From positions 35,127-99,126 of the IMG/VR virus record IMGVR_UViG_3300007513_000015: a stretch of DNA of 64,000 nucleotides; one strand, written 5' to 3'. The notes beneath the pieces are model-generated. The model worked only from the letters and a program-made list of their open reading frames with translations. It made no database searches and was not told where the DNA came from. This DNA is from a virus. This document shows positions 818 through 36,663 of this stretch, one piece after another. The first letter of the stretch is position 1. Every line of letters starts with the position of its first letter. The position numbers and the translations under genes were made by a program.

Positions 818-1828
818 ATGGGTGCAATTGTAACCAGTAAATTTAGAACACAGAACTTGATGGTATTTATTGACCAGTTCAAAACTACTGGTTCTGTTGA
901 TGATAACTTCCTGTATCTAGGCTTCGGACGTTCACAAGCGTGGGCTGATGATGCTCAAGGAAATGACGAATCTTCAGGTAACTTCACATTACCTGATCCA
1001 CTTGATGAAGATGAAGGACAATATTGGGCTGACATTGTTGGCGCAAAGCGTATTCAGAATGATGATATATCACCTGTACTTCCACGTGTTGACTGGGAAG
1101 GCGGTGATACTTTAGCATTCGATGGTGATACTACTAATGGTATTGTAGGTATCGCTGAGCCCGGTCGTTCTTTCGTTTCAAAGACTGGATATCATTCAGT
1201 TATAATGAATTCAGAGTATCGTGTTTATATGTGTACTGGTGAACCTACTGGTGGTAAGTGTTATATTGGTGGTGTATTTGATGGTGGTACTGCTACTTCA
1301 CGTACAACTTGTGAGAACACTACTGGTGGATTATGGCTACCTACTGGTGCTTCTGAGGAACCAACTGGATTTACAGGTGATGCGGCAGGACTAACTTCAC
1401 AAGCAATTACTACTGCTGATGGTTATGTGTGGACTTTCCTTTATAAGCTAGAATTGAATGATATTATTAACTCAACTACAAATGACTGGATGCCTGTTAT
1501 TTCTGGTACTGGTGTTCTTTCTGGTTCTGAGCAATCAAACTTTGGTGATGTTGATGCTATCTTTACGGCAAAATGTCATCACGGTTTGATTCACGTTCGA
1601 CTAGAAACTTCTGATGGATTCCCAGAAAATGATGACTTCCGTCAAATTGGTCTGTTACGTAATCCTGAATTGGCGGGCGGTGGAACAAAGGCACAATCTG
1701 CGGTATATGCTGATGCTGTTACATCACTTGAACAAGATTCAGGACAGTTAATTTATCTTGAGAATCGCCGTGCGATTACTCGTGCTTCTGATCAGATTGA
1801 AGATTTGAAACTTGTAGTTGAATTCTAA
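818..1828 (+). CDS. gp8: Baseplate wedge subunit gp8
   Basis: AIVTSKFRT N-terminus, DGYVWTFLY, FRQIGLLRNP and C-terminal YLENRRAITRASDQIEDLKLVVEF, all characteristic of T4 gp8. Confidence 0.92.
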   Translation: MGAIVTSKFRTQNLMVFIDQFKTTGSVDDNFLYLGFGRSQAWADDAQGNDESSGNFTLPDPLDEDEGQYWADIVGAKRIQNDDISPVLPRVDWEGGDTLAFDGDTTNGIVGIAEPGRSFVSKTGYHSVIMNSEYRVYMCTGEPTGGKCYIGGVFDGGTATSRTTCENTTGGLWLPTGASEEPTGFTGDAAGLTSQAITTADGYVWTFLYKLELNDIINSTTNDWMPVISGTGVLSGSEQSNFGDVDAIFTAKCHHGLIHVRLETSDGFPENDDFRQIGLLRNPELAGGGTKAQSAVYADAVTSLEQDSGQLIYLENRRAITRASDQIEDLKLVVEF

Positions 1829-1847
1829 ATCTGTAAAAGCTATACTG

Positions 1848-1893
1848 AATATCCCTATTCTGTATATAAGATAAATATACGAATAGGGATATT
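1848..1893. promoter_or_regulatory. Long intergenic inverted repeat enclosing a late-promoter-like GATAAATA
   Basis: AATATCCCTATTC pairs with GAATAGGGATATT; inner GTATAT/ATATAC pair. Confidence 0.5.
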
Positions 1894-1921
1894 TCATAAG
1901 AACAAACTGTAGGATAAGATA

Positions 1922-7330: not shown

Positions 7331-7339
7331 GAGAATAAA

Positions 7340-7763: not shown

Positions 7764-10700
7764 ATGGCACACTATACAGGTCACAAATTCACTTTAACTG
7801 AATTAAATACAATAGAACAACAGAAGAGTGATTTTCTCAACTCTCTGAATATTAAATTATCTGCTCCTGATCTGTTAGTTAAGGATCTATCTCTGATGTT
7901 GAAGTCTCTGGAAGTAATGGAGAATCTTGAGCATTTACCAGAGTATAAAGACTTTCTGATTAATGTTGCTAATCGTTCTGCAACATTTGTTAATCCAACA
8001 GAAATGATTCCTAATGGTGGTTTTGATGTAACATATAACACAACAAACCTTGTCACCAATTCGTCTTTTTCTGCTGATGCTTTTGAACTTGAAATAATTA
8101 AAAACTCTGGTTTTGATGTTCCTGTTGACCTTGCACGTCCTTGGGCGAATGGTATTGCATATAAGTTTGATACATTATTTACAGAAGGCACTCAAATTGT
8201 TCAAGCATTCACTGATGGACAACAGACTGCTCTTACTTGGTTCGAGACTGAATTAAAACCCAATACACAGTACAAGTTTTCTTATGACTTGACTGTAAAT
8301 CCAGTTAATTGGGATTTACTGAGTGGTGGCTTCAATATGGTTGATATACCATCTTCTGATAAAGCAGTATTCTCGGAGACTGGCGGCGGCCCTGATCCAC
8401 AAACATTCATTTGTTCTGTAATTGAAGATGCATCTTTGGTTCGTCCTACTTGTGATGGCGTTGCCATCGAGTGGAATACTTCTATTGAACAAATGGCTAT
8501 TGATTGTCAATCTGGCGGCGGCGTTTGGGATGAAGGCGCTATTAATGATCCACAAGCACAAAATCACATACTGATTCCTTATCATATTAATGCTCGGGAA
8601 GGCGACACAATCATTTTCACTAATCCATCTACATCTATTCTGGTTCACAATGCTGTATCTGATGATAATATTGCATTCATTTCACCAGACTTAAATCCAG
8701 GAGAATCTTGGTCTTGGGTAGTTGACGGTTATCACGACTTGTATTTCCACTGTACATTCCACCCACTTGAAGAAGGTCGTTTAACTTCCACAACTAATCA
8801 TAGATACGTTTATGCTATCGACCACGGTTTGAATCCGGGCGATACAGTTAAGATTCCTATTAATTATGGTGCGAATGTTGCATTACCATCATTATCAAAT
8901 TCTTATGCTATTAACTTAGCATTACCACAATCTTGTACTTCACTTGGTGGTGCGGGCGACCAAAATGTAGTTGAGTCTCTATATCACGATTTATCAATTG
9001 GTAATATTGTTTCCTTCCAGTCTGGTGAAGTTGAAACGAATCCTGATGCTGGTGTTCCTGTTGATGTAGTTTTTCAAGGCGGCACTGGTTCAGATACTGC
9101 TAATGCGTCTGCGAGTGTTCAAGTCACTGGCGGTGTTGTTTCTGATATATCACTAACAAGTGGTGGTTCTGGATATATTGAAATTCCTACAGTTTATATT
9201 GTGGGTGGAGGCGGTGCTGGTGCTACTGCATCAATTAATTTCTCTGGCAACATAACATCTATAAGTATTGATGATATCGGTTCTGGTTACCAAACTGCTC
9301 CTACTGTTCAAATATCTGCTCCAGATGTAGCAACAATTCCTGATGGTATTGGTGGCACAATACCAACAACTCCAGCAACTGCTATAGCAACAATTAATGC
9401 CTCTGGGTCAATAGATTCTATTACCATTACGGAGAATGGTAGTGGTTACCATTCTCCTCCAACTATTACACTTGTAGGTGGTACACCTACAGTAGCAGGT
9501 AGTGTTAGTGGAGAAATTAACGGTTCTGTTCTTGGTATTACACTTATATCAGGTGGCTCAGGTTATGGTTCTGGTGATGGTTCTGTTGGAGTAGGCGAAC
9601 GTAAATGGGAAGAATATATTATTACTGCTGTTCAAAAGGGCGATGCTCGTGTAGATATATTCTTTGATGATGTTAATGTTATCGGACACTTGCATACTGC
9701 TGAATTAACTCCTGCTGAATATCAACAGATTAAGAATGGCACACCTACAGTTATTATGACTTCTACTGATGGTGAAGGTTCTGGAGAGAATTCTCCTCAC
9801 TCACACTCTGCAACTTTCGATTGGGATCCTGCATTAAATAATGGCGACGGTGGTATGTACCTTGTTGGTATGACAGGTTCACACACTCACGGAATGCAGA
9901 ACTATTATGATATTACTGGCGGCACTAAGGTAGAACTTACTAACTTCGGTCACTATCACGAGATTCTAATTTCTCTTGATGATGAGGCTACTCTTAAGGC
10001 CGCTCCACTACAGAATGTAACACAGGATACTGACGGTACTTGGAGTGCTACTTCAGGCAATACACTGATTCTTACTTCTGACTACGGTACTTCTGATCCT
10101 CAGCATTTCCATACTCTTGAGATGGGGTGTTTGGATCCAGACAATGATACTTACTTAATCATTGCTATTGACCAGCATATCCACGATTTCGATAGAGTTT
10201 GGTACCCTGGTTCTTCACAGTTTACACTTGGTCAGTATAATTTTGCGTTAGGTGGAGATGATACTAATCCCACATCTATTAATCTTCCATTTATTGATAT
10301 TATTGGATATGTTAAGAAAGATAAAGGTATCGAATGTGATGCTCACGGCTTGAAAGCTGGCGATAAAGTTCATTATCAGAATGTTTATAACGGCATTCAT
10401 CACGGTAATACTAACTACTTTGTTGACTATGTTATCGATTGGGATCACTTTGTATTAACCGAATCTGTTATTTATCCGCTTGAAAATGCTCCTGGCACAA
10501 CTCCAACACAATTCGATGTTGTTGAATCTTATGAAGTTGTTGCGGATTTAGCATCATATAGATTTGAAGTAGAAAGAGATTTAACAAATCACGTTGGTTC
10601 TCCATTTATTGAAGGCGTAGAGATTCATTGGTCACGTCCTAGAACAGTAAAATCAACCAATCACGGACTTTCTGTTGGCGATGTTGTTCAGTTACCTTCT

Positions 10701-13700
10701 GGACCACAACCATATACACCATCTGAATTACCTGGTGCTATGAACGACCATACTGTTGTTGCGCTTGGTGATGGTTATGGCCCGACTGACAATATGGAAA
10801 TCACTGTAGATACGCAAACTACATTAACATTTGTTGATCCAGACACCACTACTGTTGAAGGCGCACAAGACTCACCTTGGTACTGGACTTGGTGGGATCA
10901 TTCTGATCCATCATATGCTCCTTATCAAGTAGATGAAGCAGTGGCAGCATCATTTGGTGGTAACGAAGGAACAACAGGTGGTTTTGACTTATATCGTGGT
11001 GGTACATATAAATTCACTAATAATGCTTGGAATCCATCAGGTCATATCGTACAGCCTGATCCATTCACTGGACTCCCTACTCCAATGTATATGCACGCGG
11101 CTGGTGTTAAAGCTATTCTCGGCGCAGGGTGGGATAATCTAGTTGAAGCGGGTATGGTACAGAATGATGGTAAGAAGTGTGTTTCTATGAGAGCAGATCA
11201 CGGTCTAACTATCGTTGCTGGTGATCATAATCCATTCAACAATCTTGAAGAGGAGCCAGGCAACTGGACTTCTACAGAAACATTCCCGGTTTGTATGGGG
11301 TTAAATGGTTGGTGTGAAGAGTTAGACGTTGATGGATGGTACTACAATGGCGAAGATGATAAACAGACTTGTTTAGATTTGAATCCAACAAGTGAGGTTG
11401 GATTAGCGCAATGGAGAGAATCACAATACATTGGTAACTTCTCTAAAGAATTCACTTGGAAGATTCCTGAAGATTTCGGTCTTACTGGTTCTGATGGTAA
11501 TTCTGGACTTGGTCCATTTGTTGCGCCTGGCGAAGTAAATGGATACTATGCTGTAGAAGCTGATGGTGGTCTATATAAATTTGATAAAGAAGGTATGATT
11601 GAAGGTACTAACAGAACAGTCAACCTTTATCGTGGTGGCACTTATCGCTTCCGTGTGAATGCGGCTGGTCACCCAATGTATATTACAACTGATGATGGTT
11701 CACACTTTACTCCAGGTGCTTATTTTGGTGAGTATCTACTTGGTGTAAATGGTTCAAGAGCAGAAGAGGGAGCTGGTGACCAAACATACGCTGATTCTTC
11801 TAACTTTGGTCTTGATGGGGCAGGCGTTCCTAAATATGAAATTTTAGAATTCACTGTACCATCTGTCGCTCCTGATACACTTTACTATCAGTGTGCTTGG
11901 CACGCTTCTATGATGGGACAATTCAATATTATTGACTTGCCTGTTGTTAATGCTGGTGAAGATATTGTTGTTTACTACCATCACGGTCAGGACAATATGT
12001 ACACTCCTCTACATATTAAGGATAAGATTGTTGTTGATAACGGCACTTCTACTGACTACTTCCAGGTACAGCCTGAGCCAGTAAATTCATTCCCAGTAAA
12101 AGGAACTCAAGCAGACGTACTTAATGAAGGCAATCTGTTAACTGCTACAGGTGAAGGTGCAATTCCAAAGATTCAAGCAATGAATATTGAACTTGGCACT
12201 ACATCTTATATTGATCCACTTGTGATGATTCCAGGAATTGGTTCTGAGCAATTCCTTGTAACAAACAATGAAAGTGGTCTTGCTAAGGTTTATATCAGTG
12301 TTGATATAGATAAGCGTTCTAATATCTCTCTTGATAACGTAACATTCAAGGAAGTTGTATGGACAGAATCTGGTTCTTGGCAGATTCAAGGTGGTACTGC
12401 ATTTACGAATACTACTGTTGCAGGATATATTGAGCAGATTGTTACTGGTTCAATTGTTGAAGGCACAACATACGAGATCCAATACGATATCGTAGAATCA
12501 TTCAAGGATGACTTTGATGCGGAAGTTGGAACAGTTCAAGCAGTTCTTATTGGTGATACTATTGTTGAAGGCACATCTAATACTACAGTTGGACACTACT
12601 CCGAAACAGTAATTGCTCCTGCTAATACAAATATATTGAGACTAAATAACACAGGTAAGGGTAAGATTGATAATGTTTCAATCCGTGAACGTGTAACTGG
12701 TCAAAATGCTTGGTATATGGGTGAAGGCTGGAATTCAGTCGGAGGTAAAGCATATATTGACGGCACTATCTCTTCTAAAACAGAAGTTAACCAGACTGTT
12801 GATATTGAGACTGGTAAACTATATGAAGTTAAGTATAATTTAGCAGACCTCGACCCTAATGATAACGGTATGTCTGGTAGATTACGTGTTACTCTAGGTA
12901 CTAATCCTGAGAATTTAATTTCAAATTGGAACTTTGATTTCACTGATCCTGTTCTAGTTAATTGGACAACTTCTGGTCCTGATGTACAGATTGTTAATGA
13001 GAAGTTAATTTTCAATTCTTCTACAAATGGCACTGCTACATACACCTTAGCTAATGCTCTTGTTAAGAATGAGAAGTATGAAGCAACTATTGATTGTGAT
13101 GTGTTTGATGAAAATATCTTGAATTTCCAAGTTGGGCCTGGGCCTGCTGGAACTCACGCTCATACATTCCAAATGACTGAAACACAGAGTAATTGGTTAC
13201 AAGAGAATCCATCTGTTAATACGCTATCATTTGTGCAGACTGATGGTTATCACGCAGAAACATATACACACATCTTTACAATTGCTTGGTCTCAAGATAT
13301 TATGAGTTATGTGTTAGTTTCACAAACAATTCCTGAAGGTCACGATGAATTAACTCTAGTGTCAACTACTAATAACAATCCTACAATTGATGTGTTTGTT
13401 GATGGTGTTGCTCAACATACTATTTCTACAACTGGTATCCATCACATTGATTTAGTTGGAGAGGCTTCATCTACATTTATGCTACAGATGAATGGTTCAG
13501 GTTCTATCAACTCCGTTAAGCTAGTTGAAGAAGAAATACCAGCAATTGATTATGACTCTACTGGTGTTGTTCCTAATGGTGAACAATCTTACTATACGAG
13601 AGCTGGTTCACACGACTCTAAGATTCACTTCATTGCTGATGTGGACAATAATCGTCCTGAAGAAAATAATCCTTACTACACTAATATTGGTTTTGAAGGA

Positions 13701-15299
13701 TCTATTGATAATATTTCAGTTCGTGAAGTGGAAGAGAATTGGACTTTCGCTTCTCAAGAAGGTGGTAATTCATATGTTGACCAAACTTCACAACAGATTT
13801 ACACTTCTGGTGTTGGTACTGGTGCAAGAGGAATCGCACATATCTCATTTGAAATCACTAATGAAATGAACTATCGTGTAGGCTTCAATATTGATAGACC
13901 TACTGATTCTATTGTTAAGATTGGTCCTACTCCAGATTCAGACACGTATGGTAGTTTTGAAATCACTGCTAATGATAATGATGGAGATAAAGACTTTATA
14001 TTCACTGCACCAGTTACTGGTGTTGCGTACATAACACTTTCTACTACTGGAAATGGCTTCACTTATTGGGATAATGTTTCTGTTAAGACTATTCCTAATC
14101 TTTCTTCTGATGAGTATCTATTGCTTGCACGTTCTTTGAATGTGTTTGGTGTACCTATCGGTGGAGAAGAAAGATGGAAGAGTGTCCATCTTGATATGGA
14201 AAATGCAGACTATACAGGTCAGCCTATCTCTGGTATGCGTACACTGGAATCATTTGGCGAATCAGTGATTGAAAATTACTATGATGTTAACAGACGTTCT
14301 AATGATATCTTGAATCCACCTGTATCTCTGACCGGTATGAATATTGAGTTTGGTACAAGAGCGGTTACAGCAATTAATCCTTCTTGTTCTAATGATCTAT
14401 ATAATAATCAAGTAGATTGTGAGACACCTAACGGTACTTGGTTCGATACAGTAGTATCCTTCTGTTCTGATTCAATCTATCCAGATGAAGTGTCTTGTAT
14501 TGAGCCTAATGGTACTTGGACTGCTGGTTCTTGTTCTAATCCAATATATGGAGATGTTTCATCTTGTGAAGATGCGGGAACGTGTTCTGATTCACAGTTT
14601 AACAACAGTGAAACACAGTGTACTACTTCTGGTGGAGTTTGGACTTCTGATAATAATACTTGGACATTTGGTGTTTGTACTGACTTATCTTTCAATGACC
14701 AATCTTCTTGTGAATCACCAAGAGGAGTTTGGACACCTGAGAATCCAGCTCATTGTACTGACTTATCTTTCAATGACCAATCTTCTTGTGAATCACCAAG
14801 AGGAGTTTGGGATGCTACTGTAGTTGAGGCAATGACTGGAGACACAATCGAAGTAACTGGTGCTGGTATTGATCCAAACTATATTATCACTATTGGTGGG
14901 GTTGAACAATCATCTTCACCAATAAATCTACCAACTAAGGTTAACTTTATATTAAATGCTGATACTCCACTAGGAATACAAGAATTTAAGATTACAAATA
15001 TTGACGGTGATTTTGCTATACTTGATGTGCCATTCACTGTACTTGATCACTTGAGAATCATTACTGTTACTGATAATCTTGATGGCACTTATGGAGTTAC
15101 AGGAGCATCATTTGAATCTACTACAACAGTAACACTTATTGACCAAGCAACTACAACTGATTATCCTCAAACGGTAACATTTGTTGATGCTAACAATATT
15201 TCATTTACTGATGTTGTAAATCCTGGTACATATGATGTGAGAGTTGATAATTCTGATGGATCAACATTCACTGAAATTGATGCAGTAGTTATAGCATAA
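7764..15299 (+). CDS. Giant (2511 aa) virion/fibre protein with cupredoxin-like, His-x-His, Gly-rich beta-repeat, carbohydrate-binding-like and Cys-repeat modules
   Basis: HNAV...YFHCTFHP and GHPMY...YYQCAWHASMMG motifs; GSGY repeats; IDNVSIRE jelly-roll-like repeats; C-terminal C-x10-CE repeats. Confidence 0.75.
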   Translation: MAHYTGHKFTLTELNTIEQQKSDFLNSLNIKLSAPDLLVKDLSLMLKSLEVMENLEHLPEYKDFLINVANRSATFVNPTEMIPNGGFDVTYNTTNLVTNSSFSADAFELEIIKNSGFDVPVDLARPWANGIAYKFDTLFTEGTQIVQAFTDGQQTALTWFETELKPNTQYKFSYDLTVNPVNWDLLSGGFNMVDIPSSDKAVFSETGGGPDPQTFICSVIEDASLVRPTCDGVAIEWNTSIEQMAIDCQSGGGVWDEGAINDPQAQNHILIPYHINAREGDTIIFTNPSTSILVHNAVSDDNIAFISPDLNPGESWSWVVDGYHDLYFHCTFHPLEEGRLTSTTNHRYVYAIDHGLNPGDTVKIPINYGANVALPSLSNSYAINLALPQSCTSLGGAGDQNVVESLYHDLSIGNIVSFQSGEVETNPDAGVPVDVVFQGGTGSDTANASASVQVTGGVVSDISLTSGGSGYIEIPTVYIVGGGGAGATASINFSGNITSISIDDIGSGYQTAPTVQISAPDVATIPDGIGGTIPTTPATAIATINASGSIDSITITENGSGYHSPPTITLVGGTPTVAGSVSGEINGSVLGITLISGGSGYGSGDGSVGVGERKWEEYIITAVQKGDARVDIFFDDVNVIGHLHTAELTPAEYQQIKNGTPTVIMTSTDGEGSGENSPHSHSATFDWDPALNNGDGGMYLVGMTGSHTHGMQNYYDITGGTKVELTNFGHYHEILISLDDEATLKAAPLQNVTQDTDGTWSATSGNTLILTSDYGTSDPQHFHTLEMGCLDPDNDTYLIIAIDQHIHDFDRVWYPGSSQFTLGQYNFALGGDDTNPTSINLPFIDIIGYVKKDKGIECDAHGLKAGDKVHYQNVYNGIHHGNTNYFVDYVIDWDHFVLTESVIYPLENAPGTTPTQFDVVESYEVVADLASYRFEVERDLTNHVGSPFIEGVEIHWSRPRTVKSTNHGLSVGDVVQLPSGPQPYTPSELPGAMNDHTVVALGDGYGPTDNMEITVDTQTTLTFVDPDTTTVEGAQDSPWYWTWWDHSDPSYAPYQVDEAVAASFGGNEGTTGGFDLYRGGTYKFTNNAWNPSGHIVQPDPFTGLPTPMYMHAAGVKAILGAGWDNLVEAGMVQNDGKKCVSMRADHGLTIVAGDHNPFNNLEEEPGNWTSTETFPVCMGLNGWCEELDVDGWYYNGEDDKQTCLDLNPTSEVGLAQWRESQYIGNFSKEFTWKIPEDFGLTGSDGNSGLGPFVAPGEVNGYYAVEADGGLYKFDKEGMIEGTNRTVNLYRGGTYRFRVNAAGHPMYITTDDGSHFTPGAYFGEYLLGVNGSRAEEGAGDQTYADSSNFGLDGAGVPKYEILEFTVPSVAPDTLYYQCAWHASMMGQFNIIDLPVVNAGEDIVVYYHHGQDNMYTPLHIKDKIVVDNGTSTDYFQVQPEPVNSFPVKGTQADVLNEGNLLTATGEGAIPKIQAMNIELGTTSYIDPLVMIPGIGSEQFLVTNNESGLAKVYISVDIDKRSNISLDNVTFKEVVWTESGSWQIQGGTAFTNTTVAGYIEQIVTGSIVEGTTYEIQYDIVESFKDDFDAEVGTVQAVLIGDTIVEGTSNTTVGHYSETVIAPANTNILRLNNTGKGKIDNVSIRERVTGQNAWYMGEGWNSVGGKAYIDGTISSKTEVNQTVDIETGKLYEVKYNLADLDPNDNGMSGRLRVTLGTNPENLISNWNFDFTDPVLVNWTTSGPDVQIVNEKLIFNSSTNGTATYTLANALVKNEKYEATIDCDVFDENILNFQVGPGPAGTHAHTFQMTETQSNWLQENPSVNTLSFVQTDGYHAETYTHIFTIAWSQDIMSYVLVSQTIPEGHDELTLVSTTNNNPTIDVFVDGVAQHTISTTGIHHIDLVGEASSTFMLQMNGSGSINSVKLVEEEIPAIDYDSTGVVPNGEQSYYTRAGSHDSKIHFIADVDNNRPEENNPYYTNIGFEGSIDNISVREVEENWTFASQEGGNSYVDQTSQQIYTSGVGTGARGIAHISFEITNEMNYRVGFNIDRPTDSIVKIGPTPDSDTYGSFEITANDNDGDKDFIFTAPVTGVAYITLSTTGNGFTYWDNVSVKTIPNLSSDEYLLLARSLNVFGVPIGGEERWKSVHLDMENADYTGQPISGMRTLESFGESVIENYYDVNRRSNDILNPPVSLTGMNIEFGTRAVTAINPSCSNDLYNNQVDCETPNGTWFDTVVSFCSDSIYPDEVSCIEPNGTWTAGSCSNPIYGDVSSCEDAGTCSDSQFNNSETQCTTSGGVWTSDNNTWTFGVCTDLSFNDQSSCESPRGVWTPENPAHCTDLSFNDQSSCESPRGVWDATVVEAMTGDTIEVTGAGIDPNYIITIGGVEQSSSPINLPTKVNFILNADTPLGIQEFKITNIDGDFAILDVPFTVLDHLRIITVTDNLDGTYGVTGASFESTTTVTLIDQATTTDYPQTVTFVDANNISFTDVVNPGTYDVRVDNSDGSTFTEIDAVVIA
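14675..14810 (+). repeat. Two identical 58-bp copies (14675-14732, 14753-14810) encoding CTDLSFNDQSSCESPRGVW
   Basis: Nucleotide identity read directly. Confidence 0.9.
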
Positions 15300-15378: not shown

Positions 15379-18300
15379 ATGTCCGTAACACTATCAAACA
15401 TAACAACTGCGGTTGATCCGTTTAACGATATTCCAGATATTACATTTGATAGTATCGACATCACGGCTTTCACCGAAGAAGTAGAAATTTATACTAACAC
15501 TCCTGCGGTGATGATTCCAACTAAGTTGAACGCAATGGCTGGTTCAATGAAAACTTGGTTGAATGATAATATTAGTGCGCCACTAGAGAACCAACAAAAC
15601 ACATTCAAGAATGAAGTGATTATAAGAACCAACACTGCTATGAATGCTGTTGAAACCTATATGAATGATGAAGTTCAAGGTTTCGTTAATACAGTATTTG
15701 TGCCTTGGGCAAACGATGCTGGTAATATTCTTTCAAATCACGCAAACATTCTTGAAACTAATGTGACTGGAACAATATCACAGTTACAAAGTGACTACAC
15801 TCTTCACGTTGAATCTCAGGATGCTATTATCCAGCAGGCCCTTGATGATATATTATCTAATATTGCTCAATATACTTCTGGTGCGGCAGATTCTGGTTAT
15901 TCTATTCATCAAACCAATGAATTACTTGCCGATGTTACGATGACTCGTGAGATTGGATTTGATAACTACAAATACAATGCAGAAGGTCAGATCACATTCG
16001 CAGAAGAAGGACCAAATAGAACACATCATATTTCATATAACAAATCAACTGGCGCTATTCAGGCATTTGGTGAGTCAATGCAAATCGAAGGTGAGCCTCG
16101 TCCATTCGTTCAACATCTTAAACTTGAACAAGAGGCTTCTACTGGCTCAACTTCTGTTACTAAGATTAAAGCATATGATATAAACAAGTATGTATCCACT
16201 ACTAATGTTAATTCATTCAGAGGAACTGGACACGAAGAAGATGGCACACCGGCTGTTGAATTAACTATTCTTAATAATACGTCTATTGCTGATACTGATA
16301 ATCCTGAACTTGTCTTGAGAAGAGGTATTGATTCAGCTATGATGTGGGGTAGTCTTGATGATGGTGATTTTATTACAATCACAAATCTTGATGGTTCTAT
16401 TTACAATGAAGGTATTGTTGGCCAATATGCACAGAACTATGATACAACTTTATTTAAGCCTTATTCTTCCTATTGTCACGATTCAACATCATCCGTAACT
16501 GGATGGGGTGTGGATGCTAGTATGAATGCTATTGATATTGATTCTTCTGGCGGCCTATATGACACTCCTGTAAAATGTGAAATGTATAAAGATTCTAATG
16601 TTGCTCTTTTAGATGATTTAAGTCGTTCTTATGAGTTTAATATTGCTGGTGAATCTTATGATTCTGATTTATCTGATGGTCTTATCTATAATGTATACAT
16701 TAATGATGATTCCGGTTTCATTGATTCGTATGCATACACAATTGATGCTAATGGCAAACAAGATACTGGTGCAATCTTAAATGCTGTTTATGATAATGGT
16801 GTTTCAGATGTTACAATCACTAATAGAGGTACAAAATATTCTAAAAACTCATCTGCAAGAGCATTTGATTTAGGTGCTGTTGATGTTACAGGTTCCATTG
16901 AAACAAAAGCAGTAGCAACTCATACATTAAAGAATGGTATGGTTGATGAGATTTTAATTACTAATGCTGGTGCAGGTTATACCGGATATTATGAAATTAT
17001 CGTTCCTGAAGTTCCGGGTGGTGATGGTCATACTCATACATTACAATTTTCACAAGCAATAATTAATCAAATTAAAGCAGGAACTCCTCAAGTCGGCGCA
17101 ACCGTTGAGGCAGGTCACTCACACGATATTACTGTTGCTTGGAATGATTTTAACAATTCATTCATTCTAACACAAACAGTTGGCGGTGGTCACGACCACG
17201 AAATGACTATTACAACACATAATGTTAATCCAACAATTACAGTAGCATTCACAACAAATACTGGTGGTCTTGCTGATGGTTATGTTGTATTAGCAGAAGA
17301 TGGAACAGTAGATGAAGTTATTATAACTAATGGTGGTGCTGATTATGGAGTAGGAGATACAGTCTCTATTAGTGGTGGAGCCCCTGCTACTCCTGCGCAA
17401 GTATCAATGAATCTTGCTGATGGTGGTATCGCAAGTATTGCAGTTTCAGATCAAGGTACTGGATATACTGATAATACAGCAAAGACTGTTCAGGTGGATA
17501 TTCAAAACAATACTTTCACTCCGTCCGTTATTTCTGTAAATGTTGGAGATACAATCGACTTTACAAATCTTGATATTCAAGCGCATACAGTAACACATAC
17601 TGATGGAATGTTTAATTCTGGTGATATTCCACAAAATGCTACATTCTCATATACAGTCACAAAGGACACTGAATTAACAGATAGATATGATATTGTTGAT
17701 GAGAATAATACTGAAACTACTGCTACTCTTTGGGTTCGTGAAAACACGGTATTTGTTGAAATGAACACAACAACTGGTGGTGGTCTGAGAGGTCTTGGTA
17801 CTATTAATGCATCAGGAAACTTAATTGATATTGCTGTTGATAACCCAGGAAAAGGATATAATGCAACAGATACAGTTCGTATTATTGATGTATCTGGCCC
17901 AGGAGAAGGAGCATATGCTTCTGTAGAAACTAATCGCTCTATTGGTGCTGTTACTGTTGTGAATAAGGGAACTGGTTATTCTGAGAATACTCAAATTCTT
18001 GCGTTTGATCCTACTGGTACTCCTATCATTGATTCTGCTACTGGATTAGAAACAGGAAGAACATATGGTTCTGGAGCTATTTTGAGACCAAATTTAACAA
18101 CAGAATACGTTCCAGCTGTTTGTTCTGATTCGCAATTTCTCGTTCAAGCGGATTGTGAAGGGGCCGGGGCAACTTGGAGTGCAGAAATCACTATAGGTGA
18201 AATAATTGATGTTACTGTAGCTGATGGCGGCTCTAATTATAATGATATTCAACTTATTATTAATGATCCTGCTGGAACTGGTGCAGGTGGTTCATTGACA

Positions 18301-18969
18301 CCAGATGTTAATAATATAATCTCTGATGTAAGTTTGACTAATCGAGGTTCAAATTACAATGAGCCTATCATAATTATATCTGATCCTTCAGGTAAGATTG
18401 GTACTACTTTAGATAGCACAATTGGCGGTGGATTCGCTGGAACAGTCACACTTAATAATGGTATCGGCTCGGCTACAATCGTTGAAGATTGGCAAAATTA
18501 TATTGATGGACAAACAAGAGTTATAGTAGTTGATGCAGATCCTATTCCTACTGGTTACGGTGCTACTGGCACAGTTCAACTTGGAGCGGCAGGCAATGTT
18601 TCATCTATCACATTCACTAATCCTGGAACTGCTTATAAGCAACCTGTAGTGGTGGTTGCAGGACCAGTTAGTTATACTGGTGCTTCTATCAATAATGTTA
18701 ATACTGATTTAGCACTGTATGGGCCAGAAGGAAATACAGATAATAGCCCATTTTCTGCTAATAACACAGCCGGAACAAACTTTAAGAATGGTATTATGAT
18801 TCAGTTTGAGAATCCAAATGGTCATTCTATGGATGATTATTGGACATTCAAATGCCAGTCTTGGAAAAAAGGAACGCCAGATTCACTACTATACACTTCT
18901 AGTAGATATGATGGTAATAATGAAAATATGCGTGGAATTATTACATTGAAAGATGTATGGGACGTTTAA
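15379..18969 (+). CDS. Large virion structural/fibre protein (1196 aa) with GxGY repeats, a His-x-His module and a degenerate cupredoxin-like domain
   Basis: ITNxGxGY repeats; GHTH/GHSH/GHDH; FTPSVISVNVGDTIDFTNLDIQAHTVT. Confidence 0.7.
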   Translation: MSVTLSNITTAVDPFNDIPDITFDSIDITAFTEEVEIYTNTPAVMIPTKLNAMAGSMKTWLNDNISAPLENQQNTFKNEVIIRTNTAMNAVETYMNDEVQGFVNTVFVPWANDAGNILSNHANILETNVTGTISQLQSDYTLHVESQDAIIQQALDDILSNIAQYTSGAADSGYSIHQTNELLADVTMTREIGFDNYKYNAEGQITFAEEGPNRTHHISYNKSTGAIQAFGESMQIEGEPRPFVQHLKLEQEASTGSTSVTKIKAYDINKYVSTTNVNSFRGTGHEEDGTPAVELTILNNTSIADTDNPELVLRRGIDSAMMWGSLDDGDFITITNLDGSIYNEGIVGQYAQNYDTTLFKPYSSYCHDSTSSVTGWGVDASMNAIDIDSSGGLYDTPVKCEMYKDSNVALLDDLSRSYEFNIAGESYDSDLSDGLIYNVYINDDSGFIDSYAYTIDANGKQDTGAILNAVYDNGVSDVTITNRGTKYSKNSSARAFDLGAVDVTGSIETKAVATHTLKNGMVDEILITNAGAGYTGYYEIIVPEVPGGDGHTHTLQFSQAIINQIKAGTPQVGATVEAGHSHDITVAWNDFNNSFILTQTVGGGHDHEMTITTHNVNPTITVAFTTNTGGLADGYVVLAEDGTVDEVIITNGGADYGVGDTVSISGGAPATPAQVSMNLADGGIASIAVSDQGTGYTDNTAKTVQVDIQNNTFTPSVISVNVGDTIDFTNLDIQAHTVTHTDGMFNSGDIPQNATFSYTVTKDTELTDRYDIVDENNTETTATLWVRENTVFVEMNTTTGGGLRGLGTINASGNLIDIAVDNPGKGYNATDTVRIIDVSGPGEGAYASVETNRSIGAVTVVNKGTGYSENTQILAFDPTGTPIIDSATGLETGRTYGSGAILRPNLTTEYVPAVCSDSQFLVQADCEGAGATWSAEITIGEIIDVTVADGGSNYNDIQLIINDPAGTGAGGSLTPDVNNIISDVSLTNRGSNYNEPIIIISDPSGKIGTTLDSTIGGGFAGTVTLNNGIGSATIVEDWQNYIDGQTRVIVVDADPIPTGYGATGTVQLGAAGNVSSITFTNPGTAYKQPVVVVAGPVSYTGASINNVNTDLALYGPEGNTDNSPFSANNTAGTNFKNGIMIQFENPNGHSMDDYWTFKCQSWKKGTPDSLLYTSSRYDGNNENMRGIITLKDVWDV

Positions 18970-23627: not shown

Positions 23628-23630
23628 ATT

Positions 23631-25367: not shown

Positions 25368-25376
25368 GGATAAAAT

Positions 25377-27149: not shown

Positions 27150-27991
27150 TAGTTGTTACAGGTGGTGCAGGCTTCATTGGAAGTCGATTGATTAAAGCAT
27201 TAAATCAAGAGGGTATTGAAGATATTCTTTTAGTTGATGATTTGACAGATGGTTCTAAAGTCAACAATATTAAAGACTTGAAAATATTTGAATATACTGA
27301 TAAAGATAAATTTATTGAACTTTTACCACTATTAACGGGTCAGAAATTAATAGATTGTATATATCATTTGGGTGCTGAATCTTCAACTAAATGTACTGAT
27401 GGTAAATATCTAATGGATAATAATTATCAATACACTTGTAGTATATTGAGTATATGTTCTTCTGAAAACGTGCCAGTAGTATATGCTTCGTCTGCTAGTG
27501 TGTATGGTAACAGCACAACATTTAATGATAAATCTGATGATTATCAACCAAACAATATGTATGGTTTTTCTAAACTTCTCGCTGATAAATTTGCCAGACG
27601 TTTAATGAATAATAGTAAGATTATTGGACTTCGATATTTCAATGTGTATTCAGATGGTGAGTTTGAAACCCATAAAGACGGAATGAAATCACCAACTGCT
27701 TGGTTGAAAGATCAATATGAGTCAACAGGTAAGGTTCAATTGTTTGAAGGATCAGATGAGTTCAAACGAGACTTTATAAGCATTGATATGACAATCAATA
27801 AAACCATTCAGATGATGAATTCTGGTAATTCAGGAATCTATAATATCGGCACAGGTACAGCAAGATCCTTTGTTGATATGGCCAAAACTATAGATGAAAA
27901 TATTGAAATTGAATATATCCCTATGCCAGAAGATTTGAAAGAACATTATCAATCATTCACTGAGGCTGATATGACAAATTATCCTTTTTGA
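27146..27991 (+). CDS. hldD: ADP-L-glycero-D-manno-heptose 6-epimerase
   Basis: VTGGAGFIGS, DGKYLMDNNYQY, YASSASVYG, YGFSK, LRYFNVY, YQSFTEAD match HldD/RfaD. Confidence 0.88.
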   Translation: MIVVTGGAGFIGSRLIKALNQEGIEDILLVDDLTDGSKVNNIKDLKIFEYTDKDKFIELLPLLTGQKLIDCIYHLGAESSTKCTDGKYLMDNNYQYTCSILSICSSENVPVVYASSASVYGNSTTFNDKSDDYQPNNMYGFSKLLADKFARRLMNNSKIIGLRYFNVYSDGEFETHKDGMKSPTAWLKDQYESTGKVQLFEGSDEFKRDFISIDMTINKTIQMMNSGNSGIYNIGTGTARSFVDMAKTIDENIEIEYIPMPEDLKEHYQSFTEADMTNYPF

Positions 27992-28335
27992 GAATCCCCA
28001 GGTCTGATACGGTAATTATCTTCGGTAGTATCCTCACTTGATGCTTCGATAATTACCGTATCGTTTTCTAAACAAGTCACCTGATGTGGAGTCATTGGTT
28101 CAATATGAATAGTTCCCCCTTGATTCACAATCATAACTCTTGTGGATGAATCTCTCATATCCATTAATTCAACCTCAATTGCACCACTCTGGACCAACCA
28201 CGTTTCAGTCTTATTCTTATGAAAATGCATTGATGATTGATGGCCCCTTCTATGAAAGTGAAGTTCTTTCATACAATATTGCTCATTACTTTCAATGATT
28301 CGTTCGTGTCCCCATCCTTTTTCAATCTTTTCCAT
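27979..28335 (-). CDS. Cupin-fold sugar isomerase-like protein
   Basis: KGWGHE...SMHFHKNKTETW...PMTPHQ...DNYRIRPGD cupin motifs. Confidence 0.75.
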   Translation of the reverse strand: MEKIEKGWGHERIIESNEQYCMKELHFHRRGHQSSMHFHKNKTETWLVQSGAIEVELMDMRDSSTRVMIVNQGGTIHIEPMTPHQVTCLENDTVIIEASSEDTTEDNYRIRPGDSQKG

Positions 28336-29572
28336 TCTTCACTCTCTCAATCGTATTAGTTGTACTCTTACCCTCAATCGTTGGAATTATCACAACATTT
28401 TCTACTAAGTCATTACCAATAACTTCATCAAAAGTGTAATCTCCTCCCTTTATCAGTATATCAGGCTCTAATGTTTTAATCAAGTCATATGGAGTATCAT
28501 CTTCAAAAATAATTACACTATCGACCCCATCTATTGCTTCTAATACAGCCTTTCTCTCATACATATCATTCACTGGTTCACGCTTGATACGTCTTACTGA
28601 ATTATCACTATTCAATCCTACAATCAATCTATCACCAAATCGACTTGCTTTCTGTAGAAGAGCAATATGGCCAGAATGGATGATATCAAAACAACCATTA
28701 GTAAATACCACTGTTTCTTTTACGGCAGCTTTGTCTGGGGTAGCAGTTCCTAATTTACTCACAACATTTCCAGCCGCTTTATTGGAATACTTCATTGCAT
28801 TCTTAACCCCCTTCGGTAAGAAAAGAGCAAACGTAGCAATCACGGTATCTCCAGCTCCAGTAACATCTATCACTTCCTTTGCTTCTGTAGGCAAATAGAT
28901 TGATGATGCATCCCTGCCAATCCAGTGCATTCCTCCTGCACCTAGAGTGACAAGAATTCCATCTAGTTTCAGTTCTTTCACTACACGAAGAGCATTCATT
29001 GCAGTAAATACTCCATATGTTTCCTCAAACTCTTTCTTATTTGGGGTTAAACAGAATGCCCCACGATATTTATTCCAATCTGTACCCTTAGGATCAACTA
29101 AAACGGGGCAAGTATTATTATCAATAATATCTTGAATATATGATTCTGATAAGGTTCCTTTATTGTAGTCCGATAGTATTATAACGTCAGGAGACTGCGT
29201 AGGAGCGTTGGCCTCGTCTTTAATCACTCCAGAATCTATTCTGCATAGTTGATGCTCGTTCGCAAGGATACGGGTCTTTTTAAGCGTTTTGGAGTTACAA
29301 CCATATTTAAGATTATATTCAATTCCCTCGTCTGCTAGAATAGCAGTGATTATTTCAGAATCTTTATCATAACCAACAGAACTGTAAAGAGTAACATCTT
29401 TAGTAAACACACGCACGTTTTGAGCAACATTACCAGCTCCACCAAGATGATGTGTCTCTTTTACAGAATCAACCACTGGTACTGGAGATTCGGGTGATAT
29501 CCGATTAGCCACCCCATTACAGTATTCATCTAACATCAAATCACCGATCACGATTACTTGGTTATTCATCAT
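28322..29572 (-). CDS. hldE: Bifunctional heptose-7-phosphate kinase / heptose-1-phosphate adenylyltransferase
   Basis: IGDLMLDEY, RISPESPVPV, GGAGNVA, DVTGAGDTV (PfkB) plus FTNGCFDIIHSGH, KGGDY, GKSTT; start moved to the ATG at 29572 (GGA upstream). Confidence 0.92.
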   Translation of the reverse strand: MMNNQVIVIGDLMLDEYCNGVANRISPESPVPVVDSVKETHHLGGAGNVAQNVRVFTKDVTLYSSVGYDKDSEIITAILADEGIEYNLKYGCNSKTLKKTRILANEHQLCRIDSGVIKDEANAPTQSPDVIILSDYNKGTLSESYIQDIIDNNTCPVLVDPKGTDWNKYRGAFCLTPNKKEFEETYGVFTAMNALRVVKELKLDGILVTLGAGGMHWIGRDASSIYLPTEAKEVIDVTGAGDTVIATFALFLPKGVKNAMKYSNKAAGNVVSKLGTATPDKAAVKETVVFTNGCFDIIHSGHIALLQKASRFGDRLIVGLNSDNSVRRIKREPVNDMYERKAVLEAIDGVDSVIIFEDDTPYDLIKTLEPDILIKGGDYTFDEVIGNDLVENVVIIPTIEGKSTTNTIERVKNGKD

Positions 29573-29588
29573 ATCTAATTTCCATTCA

Positions 29589-29596
29589 TATAAATA
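29589..29596 (+). promoter_or_regulatory. Late promoter TATAAATA
   Basis: Exact consensus upstream of 29629. Confidence 0.65.
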
Positions 29597-29628
29597 TATC
29601 AATATTGTAAATATATATAAGGTAAAAA

Positions 29629-29904
29629 ATGAACGATAACACAGAAGTAGTTTCAGAACGACTGTGGATTGCCGTTGATAATATGAAAGAACGAATAACA
29701 AGACTCGAGGAACAAATGAAAACTGTCTACAACAAGACAGAGAGAATCGAATCGAAGTTGGATAAGTTGATTGAGCAAGGCACAGATCACGAGGTTGACA
29801 TAGCCACTAATCAAATTCAGATTAGTAATGGCGAGAGGATATTTTGGCTTATTATTTCTGCCACGATTGGTTTAATTATGTATTGGGTGAAAGGTGGAGT
29901 ATAG
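29629..29904 (+). CDS. Coiled-coil protein with C-terminal TM helix
   Basis: RITRLEEQ heptads and IFWLIISATIGLIMYWV. Confidence 0.65.
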   Translation: MNDNTEVVSERLWIAVDNMKERITRLEEQMKTVYNKTERIESKLDKLIEQGTDHEVDIATNQIQISNGERIFWLIISATIGLIMYWVKGGV

Positions 29905-29907
29905 TAT

Positions 29908-30312
29908 ATGGAAATATTGATAGAGGTTGAGAGATTTTTCTTAATATTTGTTACTGCAATTTCAATCGGTGGATTTTTATTCACATTGAGGCATAGAGGA
30001 TATTATAGTGTTTGGGCAAGGTCATCTATTTTGATGGGAGCTATTTCATCATTTTTTTTGACATTTACTTGCAATTTTGATGTTGTTTCTCATACAAATT
30101 TAAATGAATATTCAGAACCATTGTTTGCTTCAATTCATATATTAACATCTTTGTCTTTGTTATTGTTCACATACACAATTTTAAGATTTAAGTGGAAATG
30201 GCATACAGAATGTAGGTTATTTTCTAATGGTAAAGTTTATTGTGAGGATATTCCAGAATGTAAATATAATCTTGACATAAATAGTGAGGAAGAGGTAAAA
30301 AATAATGGCTAA
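29908..30312 (+). CDS. Hypothetical membrane protein (~3 TM)
   Basis: Three hydrophobic stretches; RBS present. Confidence 0.55.
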   Translation: MEILIEVERFFLIFVTAISIGGFLFTLRHRGYYSVWARSSILMGAISSFFLTFTCNFDVVSHTNLNEYSEPLFASIHILTSLSLLLFTYTILRFKWKWHTECRLFSNGKVYCEDIPECKYNLDINSEEEVKNNG

Positions 30313-31117
30313 AGTACAATCAGCAGAAGAATTAAGGGATTACGCATATCGTAAATTAGGATCTCCAAAAGTAGAGATTCAAGTTGATGATACTCAGGCG
30401 TATGATAGAATTGATGATGCTCTCCAACTATTTATTGAAAGACACTTTGATGGTGTTGAAGAGAAATTTGTTACTATCGAATTCACTGCTATAGATGAGG
30501 CAAATCAATTTATAACACTTGATGATGATATCATTGCTGTTACACGAATCTATGAGCCTGGGAAGTATTCTTCTGAGGCGATGGCTGATGTGCGTTATAG
30601 AATTATGTATGATGAAATGTTTGATATGACTAAGGTTAGTATGCAATACTACGAAATAACGATGGAACATCTGGAGATGGTCAATAGTTATTTTAATCTC
30701 GATAGAACTTTCACATTTAATAAAGCAACCAATCGCCTCTATTCGCATTCTGGAAAGATTATAGGCCCTAAGTGTTCTGATGTATCATATACAGATAAAA
30801 CAGCCTGTGAAGCGGCTGGAGAGACTTGGAGCGTTGGTAATTCAATGCTTGTGAGAGCGTGGAAAGCAGTCGTTCCTGATGAAGCCAATAGTTATGCAAT
30901 TGATGTATATAATGATGAGTGGGTCAAGAAATATGCTACTGCATTGATTAAACAACAGTGGGGAGCAAATATGAAGCAGTTTGACGGTATGCCTCTTCCT
31001 GGTGGTATCACTATAAATGGTCAGCAAGTTTGGGATGAAGCAAAAGAAGAGATTGAAAAACTCGAAGAAGAATTTTCACTTAATTACGAACTACCTGTCA
31101 ACTTCATTGTAGGATAA
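30305..31117 (+). CDS. gp13: Neck protein gp13
   Basis: YRKLGSPKVEIQV; WVKKYATALIKQQWG; LPGGITING. Confidence 0.93.
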   Translation: MAKVQSAEELRDYAYRKLGSPKVEIQVDDTQAYDRIDDALQLFIERHFDGVEEKFVTIEFTAIDEANQFITLDDDIIAVTRIYEPGKYSSEAMADVRYRIMYDEMFDMTKVSMQYYEITMEHLEMVNSYFNLDRTFTFNKATNRLYSHSGKIIGPKCSDVSYTDKTACEAAGETWSVGNSMLVRAWKAVVPDEANSYAIDVYNDEWVKKYATALIKQQWGANMKQFDGMPLPGGITINGQQVWDEAKEEIEKLEEEFSLNYELPVNFIVG

Positions 31118-31121
31118 TAAA

Positions 31122-31736: not shown

Positions 31737-31737
31737 T

Positions 31738-32538: not shown

Positions 32539-32550
32539 TGAGAATACAAT

Positions 32551-33036
32551 ATGACAAAGAAATCTGTAGACGAACGGTTAGATGCTGAGTTAGATATAGC
32601 CGAAAATATAATTGACGAATTTGAGCATCCTGAAATAGTAGAGGGTGAAGAAACTCGTATTGTTAATACTAGAAGAGAACGTGGACTTGCTCCTCGTGCT
32701 AGTGTAAATTCAAATCCTGATACTGGCGACCTAGATAATGACTATTCATACGCCAGAGACAATCTTTACAATCTCATAGAAAGAGGTAATGATGCTCTTG
32801 AGGGAATTCTTGAGTTAGCAAAAGAGATGGAGCATCCTAGAGCCTATGAAGTTGCTAGTGGACTAATCAAAACTGTAGGTGATACAACAATGGAGTTGTT
32901 GAAGATGCAGAAAGAATTGAAGTTGATGAAAGACGAGACACAATCACCAAACGGCACAACAAATAATAATCTATATGTTGGATCTACTGCTGATTTACAA
33001 GAATTATTAAAAGGTAAGACACTCGATGGACAATAA
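32551..33036 (+). CDS. gp16: Terminase small subunit gp16
   Basis: DYSYARDNL, HPRAYEVA, NNNLYVGST. Confidence 0.92.
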   Translation: MTKKSVDERLDAELDIAENIIDEFEHPEIVEGEETRIVNTRRERGLAPRASVNSNPDTGDLDNDYSYARDNLYNLIERGNDALEGILELAKEMEHPRAYEVASGLIKTVGDTTMELLKMQKELKLMKDETQSPNGTTNNNLYVGSTADLQELLKGKTLDGQ

Positions 33037-33277
33037 AACAATAAGAATTCAGAACTTTAGCCTAATTACTATTATCGCTATTGTTATGTTCACTGCTATG
33101 ACATTGATGGATTTAGTGCGTGATGTGAATAATATCAAACACTTTATTACGGAGCGACAAGAAATGCCAAATAAAGTTAAAGCGTATGCTAGACAACAGA
33201 TTAATCTTCATATCGAAGAAGATAAAATTTGGCAGAATAGAATTGAACAGAAGATAGATAGATTAATAAAAGAATAG
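33026..33277 (+). CDS. Hypothetical protein with N-terminal TM
   Basis: Fills the gap between gp16 and gp17; hydrophobic N-terminus. Confidence 0.55.
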   Translation: MDNKTIRIQNFSLITIIAIVMFTAMTLMDLVRDVNNIKHFITERQEMPNKVKAYARQQINLHIEEDKIWQNRIEQKIDRLIKE

Positions 33278-33292
33278 AAGAAAAATTATATT

Positions 33293-34867: not shown

Positions 34868-34879
34868 AAAAGACAATTT

Positions 34880-34887
34880 TATAAATA
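34880..34887 (+). promoter_or_regulatory. Late promoter TATAAATA
   Basis: Exact consensus upstream of gp18. Confidence 0.8.
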
Positions 34888-34950
34888 GTTGCAATGATTG
34901 AAGAATAAATCAATCAGAAACGAATAATTTTTAATAATAGGAGAAAAACG

Positions 34951-36663
34951 ATGGGATTTCAATTAAGCCCAGGCGTACAAACGAAAGAAATCGATTTGTC
35001 TACGTCTATTCCTGCGGTTGCTACCTCTTTAGGTGCTACAGTTGGTCGTTTTACTTGGGGACCTTGCGATGAGCCTTATCTTTGCACCTCAGAAAATGAT
35101 CTAGTTAGTGTTTTCGGTCAGCCAACCAATGATACATATCCAGCGTTTCTTTCTTCTGCGGCCTTCTTGAAGTATGCTAATTCACTTCAAGTTATGCGTG
35201 TTGTTGATGAGGGTGCTATGAATGCTGCCCCTTCTGGTAACGTAACACAAATTAAGGGACAAGAAGATTTTGAAACACAACAAGATTCTGGTACTTTGAC
35301 AGAGGGATTTTATGCCCGCTATCCTGGTACATATGGTAACGGAATTTCAGTAGAAACTCATTCAGGTGATGGTACTTGGAGTGCTTGGTCACTTGCAAGT
35401 GCATTTGATGTACAACCTGATCCATCTAATAATGAAATGGCTGTTGCTGTTATCGTTGGTGGTGAAGTGGTAGAATCTTATCTTGTAGGTACTGCCGAAG
35501 GTACAAGAGACACTATGGGTGTTAATATCTTTGCCGAAGAAGTTATCAATAAACAATCTAAGCTAGTATGGGTTAACGCAAGTGAGGTAACTAATTCTGG
35601 ACCAGGCACTGTTGCATTTAGTGGCGGTATCGCTGTTTCTGCTGGTGTTGATGCACACTGTGACGATGGTTCTGCTGATGATCAGACTGCTTGTGAAGGT
35701 GCTGGAAACACTTGGGTTCCTGCTGTTGCGGCTGGTACTGTTGGTATTAACGAATATCAAGCTGGCTGGGACAAGTTTGTAAACGCTGATGAAATCAATG
35801 TTAGTCTATTGATTGCTGGCGGTGTTTCTAACGAGCCTACTGCTACCGTATCTGCTGTTGAGAAGTATATGGTAGAGTCTATTGCAGAAGCACGTAAAGA
35901 TTGTATTGCCGCTTTATCACCTCCAAAAGAGCAGGTTGTTAATGTTGGTGGTGCTACTAATGCTGTAAATAATGTACAAGACTGGAGAGTTGATGTTGGT
36001 TTCAATGTTGCATCTTCATATGGTACTCTTGACGGTAACTATAAGTACACATACGATAAGTATAATGACACATATCGCTGGATTGGATTCAGTGCTGATG
36101 TTGCTGGCCTTATGGCTCATACTGATTCAGTTCGTGATGCTTGGTGGTCACCAGGTGGTCTGAATCGTGGTAAGATTAAGGGTGTTGTTAAGTTAGCATA
36201 CCAGCCAACTCAAGCACATAGAGACCAATTGTATATGCTTCCTTATGGAATCAATCCAATTGTAACTTTCCCTGGTCAAGGTACTGTTCTTTGGGGTGAT
36301 CGCACACTACTGACTAAACCTTCTGCATTTGATAGAATCAATGTACGTAGATTGTTTATCATTCTTGAGAAAGCGATTGCAATTTCTAGTAAATACTTCT
36401 TGTTTGAATTCAATAATGAATTCACTCGTACTAATTTCAGAAATATGGTTAATCCATATCTTGCTGGCATTAAAGCGAAACAGGGAATGTATGACTTCTA
36501 TGTACAGTGTGATAGCACTAACAATACACCAGAAGTTATTGACGGTAACGAGTTTGTTGCTAGTATTTTCATTAAACCATCTAAATCAATTAACTTTATC
36601 ACACTAAACTTTGTTGCTACAAAGACTGGTGTTGATTTTAGTGAAGTGATTGGACAAGTATAA
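34951..36663 (+). CDS. gp18: Tail sheath protein gp18
   Basis: LSPGVQTKEIDL, WWSPGGLNRG, FDRINVRRLF, IKPSKSINFITLNFVAT. Confidence 0.97.
   Translation: MGFQLSPGVQTKEIDLSTSIPAVATSLGATVGRFTWGPCDEPYLCTSENDLVSVFGQPTNDTYPAFLSSAAFLKYANSLQVMRVVDEGAMNAAPSGNVTQIKGQEDFETQQDSGTLTEGFYARYPGTYGNGISVETHSGDGTWSAWSLASAFDVQPDPSNNEMAVAVIVGGEVVESYLVGTAEGTRDTMGVNIFAEEVINKQSKLVWVNASEVTNSGPGTVAFSGGIAVSAGVDAHCDDGSADDQTACEGAGNTWVPAVAAGTVGINEYQAGWDKFVNADEINVSLLIAGGVSNEPTATVSAVEKYMVESIAEARKDCIAALSPPKEQVVNVGGATNAVNNVQDWRVDVGFNVASSYGTLDGNYKYTYDKYNDTYRWIGFSADVAGLMAHTDSVRDAWWSPGGLNRGKIKGVVKLAYQPTQAHRDQLYMLPYGINPIVTFPGQGTVLWGDRTLLTKPSAFDRINVRRLFIILEKAIAISSKYFLFEFNNEFTRTNFRNMVNPYLAGIKAKQGMYDFYVQCDSTNNTPEVIDGNEFVASIFIKPSKSINFITLNFVATKTGVDFSEVIGQV

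Follow-up and report, generated by a model that had tools for sequence, protein, structure and literature searches.

A 19-residue two-cysteine module of an undescribed repeat family is variably present in neck and sheath proteins of a marine T4-like phage clade

Why does a T4-like phage carry the same short cysteine-bearing segment in its neck, in its tail sheath and in its giant virion proteins? The question is raised by a 64,000-nucleotide (nt) stretch of the IMG/VR virus record IMGVR_UViG_3300007513_000015 (positions 35,127 to 99,126, hereafter the window), which covers the structural block of a T4-like myovirus with a GC content of 37% and lies on a 99-kb contig. A module with the pattern C-x10-C-E-x2-G-x2-W occurs in the neck protein gp13, the tail sheath protein gp18 and a virion protein of 1196 residues, and these are the only strict matches in all six frames of the window. 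A preliminary description of the locus had taken the module for a mobile tag grafted into core virion proteins, and the three copies translate exactly as quoted there (Table 1). The comparisons reported here suggest that the module is an autonomous mini-domain of about 19–23 residues with the consensus C-S-D-x2-Y-T-T/D-Q/E-x2-C-E-x3-G-T-W and that it represents an undescribed repeat family. Within one marine T4-like clade, loops of neck, sheath and baseplate proteins have acquired and shed it several times over.

To assess the similarity among the copies, whose absence the preliminary description had named as grounds for abandoning its reading, we used a profile that owes nothing to the phage itself. 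A phmmer search of 1.84 billion representative proteins, with the tandem array of modules in the 2511-residue virion protein as the query, matched 37 proteins, which carry tandem arrays of the module with a period of about 22–26 residues. The external hidden Markov model (HMM) comprised 135 non-redundant 19-residue copies from unrelated metagenome proteins, none from the window genome, and was scanned against the 854 six-frame open reading frames (ORFs) of the whole 99-kb contig. It recovered the array, gp13, the 1196-residue protein and gp18 (E values in Table 1), with no other match below E = 1 among these ORFs. An HMM built from the tandem copies alone gave gp13 and the 1196-residue protein as its best non-self matches. 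The module is homologous among its copies and to tandem arrays in unrelated proteins. The consensus of the 135 external copies is C-S-D-P-x-Y-T-T-Q-x-x-C-E-A-A/P-x-G-T-W.

The array-bearing proteins from metagenome-assembled genomes bear names of the prepilin type (Methylococcaceae), the PilC/PilY family (Desulfurivibrionaceae) and the InlB B-repeat (Propionibacteriaceae), and a prepilin motif was also seen in an array-bearing protein. At the DNA level the strict pattern was found in five viral loci, including a siphovirus-like tail-block protein and an amidase-like virion protein. One of the proteins seen in these comparisons has 320 residues and a single canonical copy; it is encoded on siphovirus-like contigs (L082:8455-9417 and, on the minus strand, L085) between a tail protein and a tail-fibre-like gene, and has no PHROG match. 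Scans with Pfam, NCBIfam and PHROG returned no model that covers the repeat, a PDB sequence search with the array gave chance matches only (E 0.6), a search of the ESM Atlas gave no usable match, and a literature search for a described motif of this kind found nothing relevant. A weak Toxin_13 match was taken as chance. The family is undescribed by Pfam and NCBIfam; it is a general extracellular repeat, and it fits a disulfide-bonded unit.

The distribution of the module in the sheath was assessed by comparing 120 gp18 homologs. Orthologs with at least 75% identity to gp18 of the window phage mostly carry one copy at residue 237. The exceptions are two with a copy at 216 instead, two with copies at both 216 and 237, one with copies at 170 and 237, and one with three copies in tandem. 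Eleven orthologs of 535–541 residues, at 66–71% identity, lack the module, and none of the homologs at 53% identity or less has it. Overall, the number of copies in gp18 ranges from 0 to 3, spread over three sites. After removal of the trait's own columns, a gp18 tree called for a minimum of four changes at site 237 and two at site 216; site 170, occupied in a single gp18 row, adds one more, giving at least seven gain or loss events, and the outgroup has none. Residues 236–268 of the window phage's gp18 have no counterpart in the solved KP1 sheath chain and fall between chain residues ~350 and 353 in the KP1/T4-type numbering. In T4 gp18, domains I and II (residues 83–365) face solution and the border between domains II and III lies at 345/346 (PMC3004832); the three insert sites map in or at the edge of that range.

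The neck protein tells a similar story. Reading gp13 in 80 IMG/VR loci, we found three states: a tight two-residue turn without the module, in orthologs at 70–77% identity; a single copy; and a form with four cysteines, where the first loop of one copy encloses a second copy. The nested form, C-x5-[C-x10-C-x6-W]-x8-C-x6-W, was observed in three loci (L013, L039 and L043), and self-nesting was seen independently in gp13 and in the 2511-residue protein family. All combinations of gp13 and gp18 module states are present among the relatives. The idea of discrete insertions into gp13 and gp18 is thus borne out, since the module is absent from orthologs at 65–77% identity and varies in site and copy number; likewise, an external-profile scan of the 50-kb structural block of T4 found no match in T4 gp13 or T4 gp18, as the preliminary description had implied. 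A more distant T4-like phage (L073:4626-5483 and L074:2206-3063) carries the module close to the C terminus of its tail sheath stabiliser, gp15; in both loci gp13, at 41% identity, is without it, as is gp18, which is present only in L073.

The 1196-residue protein behaves differently from gp13 and gp18. Its copy is kept in all 37 of the orthologs listed, down to 51% identity, and its homolog at 41% identity has a clean 30-residue gap at the module site. By this comparison, the module is older in the 1196-residue protein than in gp13 and gp18. No orthologous copy has lost either cysteine or the tryptophan.

How the copies spread can be judged in part from their DNA. The copies agree only at constrained codons, with one exception, the last two units of the array (r5 and r6), which are identical over 57 nt at a unit offset of 78 nt and represent a very recent local tandem duplication inside the 2511-residue protein gene. 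The junctions of gp13 genes with and without the module, inspected by eye, have no obvious direct repeats. A DNA-level mobile element was considered and rejected on account of this merely codon-level similarity; the module can accordingly be called mobile at the protein level but not at the DNA level, where a single local duplication is seen. Most simply, the mosaic of states would reflect old insertions and duplications shuffled by homologous recombination.

The baseplate wedge protein gp8 requires a different account. The preliminary description did not know of the module in T4 gp8, yet phmmer alignments place a canonical C-x10-C-x6-W copy in gp8 of T4 (1N7Z, residues ~142–160) and of KP1 (9F4A), at the exact position of the long-loop variant in the window phage. 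It is an ordinary conserved part of gp8. The segment from about Cys142 to Trp160 shares with the module the C-x10-C-x6-W spacing, Ser2, the acidic helix start and G-G-x-W. With the external profile the isolated T4 and KP1 copies score 17.7 and 15.8 bits, next to 18.3 for the gp18 copy, and among the 392 ORFs of the T4 block residues 142–160 of gp8 were the best match (E 0.0055). The first loop of the window phage's gp8 copy is 7 residues longer than that of T4; every ortholog at or above 77% identity keeps this long-loop variant, and two gp8 orthologs have an extra canonical copy. The module in gp8 is therefore ancestral and shared with T4 rather than grafted, whereas the alignments point to a recent, lineage-specific and lineage-variable graft in gp13 and gp18: in T4 the gp8 copy is a fixed part of one protein, while the window phage has extra copies in gp13, gp18 and the giant proteins. 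A partial match in T4 gp10 (residues 347–361, L086:18050-19891; E 0.36) was taken as chance. This look-alike has only the second half of the module (an acidic run, Cys, x4, G-G-T-W), and the first cysteine is absent.

Two further claims of the preliminary description held in part. It had the 2511-residue protein ending in about six copies; the array does contain five full copies and one truncated copy, but some 160 residues follow it. It had also listed longer variants in gp8 and near position 8450. With the external HMM alone neither reaches significance (E 0.067 and E 0.11, respectively), but position supports both. At the second site, in the ortholog P0127, an outer long-loop unit encloses a canonical copy within its first loop, and residues 231–252 of P0127 form self-nested copies as in the double form of gp13. 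Canonical copies have the spacing C-x10(11)-C-x6(7)-W, and both variants have a first loop of 17 residues.

We next considered the likely fold of the unit, using AlphaFold models of gp18 (79-sequence alignment; predicted local distance difference test score, pLDDT, 82) and gp13 (28 sequences, pLDDT 75). In both models Cys1 lies at a bridge or strand, a helix of six residues begins three positions ahead of Cys2, and the tryptophan lies at a bridge. The helix occupies residues 245–250 in gp18; in gp13 bridges at 156–157 and 175–176 flank a helix at 165–170, and the module forms the tip of a hairpin with strands 144–147 and 180–188. The two hosts thus share a predicted unit that is extended at Cys1, forms a short helix with Cys2 and is again extended at Trp. 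Because orthologs that lack the module have a two-residue turn at the gp13 site, the two ends of the module must presumably be close together. At 19 residues and with no Pfam immunoglobulin (Ig)-type match, the module is not a beta-sandwich of ~80–100 residues; nor is it a zinc ribbon or knuckle, which has four ligands, usually as two CxxC/CxxH pairs, since the module has two cysteines only and the 135 copies share neither a conserved His nor a third Cys.

Taken together, we think it probable that the module serves as a disulfide-stapled, insertion-tolerant surface decoration of the virion. Its two cysteines would bond within the module when the virion reaches oxic water, the tryptophan would pack on the disulfide, and the ends would lie side by side, so that loops of gp18, gp13, gp15 and gp8, and even the first loop of another copy, could accept the unit and leave the host fold intact. 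It would act as a passive decoration, like the Ig-like add-on domains, contributing weak adhesion or extra stability and having no enzyme site. Several points weigh against this role. Since phage proteins fold in a reducing cytoplasm, any disulfide must form after lysis. A 19-residue unit offers little surface for a binding site, and no binding partner is known. The pLDDT over the module is only ~70–80, and in its full-length context the T4 gp8 copy is only marginal, with the above E value among 392 ORFs. Finally, a tblastn search of GenBank phages with the array gave no match, which leaves no cultured system at hand.

Other roles have to be weighed against the same evidence. That the module is a near-neutral passenger, of no use to the virion but tolerated in loops and spread when co-infecting relatives recombine, would agree with its frequent gains and losses, its mosaic distribution among relatives and the viability of orthologs that lack it. 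However, the Cys, Cys, Gly and Trp positions are strictly kept among orthologs at 64–82% identity, and down to 51% in the orthologs of the 1196-residue protein, while the loop residues vary, which shows that the fold, where a module exists, is under purifying selection; we regard a pure passenger as unlikely. An intersubunit cross-linker, in which module cysteines would stiffen the tail by bonding one sheath or neck subunit to the next, has a precedent in the disulfide network documented for the sheath of Agrobacterium phage Milano (PMC10811340). Like Milano, which lives in an oxidising medium, the window phage has cysteines in a contractile sheath protein; its gp18 has four further cysteines beyond the module pair, and the insert at 237 lies at the edge of a domain involved in sheath contacts. 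The Milano bonds, however, join subunits to hold the sheath, whereas the cysteines of the module are always paired within one 19-residue unit, also outside sheaths: the unit recurs in monomeric pilin-like proteins and long tandem arrays, for which an intramodule bond is the simpler explanation. Orthologs also function when the module is missing or placed elsewhere, and we consider cross-linking between subunits distinctly improbable.

A metal site for zinc, copper or iron, made up of the two cysteines plus either the conserved Asp3 and Glu13 or a second copy, would suit the metal-rich appearance of the giant proteins nearby. It is suggested by the cupredoxin-like segments in the same proteins, by orthologs named 'plastocyanin' and by the common occurrence of Asp or Asn at position 3 and Glu at position 13. 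Known zinc knuckles, however, rely on CxxC pairs, while the module has a single C-x10-C pair and no conserved histidine; Glu13 is found in 74 and Asp3 in 81 of the 135 copies, and gp13 and gp18, with one copy each, offer no partner copy within the chain. We find metal binding very hard to credit. Even less probable is the proposal that the module is an acceptor, its Ser or Thr residues being glycosylated or carbamoylated by the products of the adjacent ADP-heptose, epimerase and twin carbamoyltransferase cassette, in parallel to the O-glycosylation of eukaryotic EGF and TSR modules. Small disulfide modules do act as glycan acceptors in eukaryotes, the cassette lies directly upstream of gp13, and Ser2, Thr7, Thr8 and Thr18 are conserved. 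The cassette, however, does not co-vary with the module across the locus census, and the role that the preliminary description gave to the neighbouring modifying enzymes finds no support. Cassette-gene homologs are present in L075–L078, where gp13 is without the module (as is gp18, found only in L076), while L035, L036 and L071, whose gp18 does have the module, lack the kinase/adenylyltransferase and cupin genes; co-occurrence of module and cassette was rejected on these grounds. In addition, T4 and KP1 carry the gp8 copy, and no glycosyltransferase domain was found in the cassette genes scanned.

The surface decoration that we favour has counterparts among known systems. Phage virion proteins bear Ig-like add-on domains (Big_2, I-set and FN3; T4 Hoc), which were reportedly described by Fraser and colleagues in 2006 and for which a mucus-adherence model exists. 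These domains resemble the module in being promiscuous, non-essential extras on many virion and bacterial surface proteins, presumed to mediate weak adhesion. They differ in being beta-sandwiches of 80–100 residues that usually sit at an end of the protein, whereas the module is a 19-residue two-cysteine unit placed inside loops, sometimes those of the module itself. The palindromic elements of Rickettsia are in-frame insertions in coding genes and resemble the module as short inserts at tolerated surface positions of unrelated proteins. They are, however, recognisable DNA repeats, whereas DNA copies of the module are alike only through shared residues and codon bias. The module is a further form of a known phage habit, that of decorating virions with small promiscuous add-on domains. 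A bolder version, which we think unlikely, would have it as a natural loop-display scaffold that is moved between virion proteins and nested in itself to change the stickiness of the tail and neck; every sheath subunit would then be an adhesin for host or particle glycans, and the post-lysis disulfide an oxidation-triggered maturation step.

The features of the window are collected in Table 1. For gp8, gp13 and gp18, both family profile and fold match identify the host proteins as T4-type: the gp18 model matched the T4 and KP1 sheaths in Foldseek at 1e-49 to 6e-50, and the gp13 model aligned to T4 gp13 with Z 16.6 (root-mean-square deviation 16.2 over 215 residues). In the window gp8 is followed by a DUF4815 protein of 1802 residues and by the 2511- and 1196-residue proteins; gp13 is followed by gp14, gp15, both terminase subunits, gp18, gp19 and gp20. 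The closest GenBank phages share less than 50% identity in gp18, and the relatives of the window phage are metagenomic, Tara Oceans records among them.

Table 1. Module copies, host genes and the neighbouring cassette, in positions of the window.
Feature	Position	Strand	Evidence or remark
gp8 baseplate wedge gene, 336 aa, host protein	818..1828	+	Pfam PF09215 (Phage-Gp8) 5.8e-34; phmmer matches gp8 chains 9F4A (KP1) and 1N7Z (T4)
Long-loop variant in gp8, C-x17-C-E-x4-G-x-W	1259..1336	+	positional homolog of the canonical T4 gp8 copy
2511-aa virion protein, host protein	7764..15299	+	ORF list; PHROG virion structural protein matches
Long-loop variant in 2511-aa protein, C-x17-C-x6-W	8451..8528	+	BLASTP alignment to ortholog P0127
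Tandem array in 2511-aa protein, five full copies and one truncated	14385..14810	+	external HMM, per-copy E 7e-6 to 1e-5
Array copy r1	14385-14441	+	
Array copy r2	14463-14519	+	
Array copy r3, truncated	14532-14582	+	
Array copy r4	14583-14642	+	
Array copy r5	14676-14732	+	
Array copy r6	14754-14810	+	
1196-aa virion protein with cupredoxin-like segment, host protein	15379..18969	+	Pfam, PHROG
Single canonical copy in 1196-aa protein, between Ig-like repeats	18121..18177	+	external HMM E 3e-6
Sugar-nucleotide and twin carbamoyltransferase cassette, directly upstream of gp13	22578-29701		
gp13 neck protein (head-tail adaptor), host protein	30305..31117	+	phrog_211 2.2e-36
Canonical copy in gp13, residues 157-175, tip of beta-hairpin	30773..30829	+	external HMM E 5.9e-9; orthologs with 0, 1 or nested 2
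gp18 tail sheath gene, host protein	34951..36663	+	Pfam sheath domains; Foldseek
Canonical copy in gp18, residues 237-255, inside 33-residue insert, domain II/III junction	35659..35715	+	external HMM E 2.7e-5

Some observations concern the surrounding genes. The cassette consists of two carbamoyltransferase genes, an NAD epimerase gene, a cupin gene and a fusion of PfkB with a cytidylyltransferase that resembles ADP-heptose synthase; it is an indel among the relatives, and in several loci gp13 directly follows the epimerase gene. Cupredoxin-like segments (Pfam Cupredoxin_1, 1.2e-4) occur in both giant proteins, which have PHROG matches to the same virion protein families, and it is the orthologs of the 1196-residue protein that their sources name 'plastocyanin'.

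Collectively, our results bring to light a small repeat family that is absent from current domain libraries, with a solved example hidden in T4 gp8, and that spans phage virion proteins and bacterial proteins of the pilus and adhesin type. Within one clade, T4-like sheath and neck proteins, commonly regarded as conserved machinery, gain and lose a very small foldable unit at several loop sites. Should this unit be a stable, disulfide-closed, hairpin-like graft, it would mark insertion-tolerant loops in gp18 and gp13, and it may explain part of how marine phages tune the surface properties of their virions.

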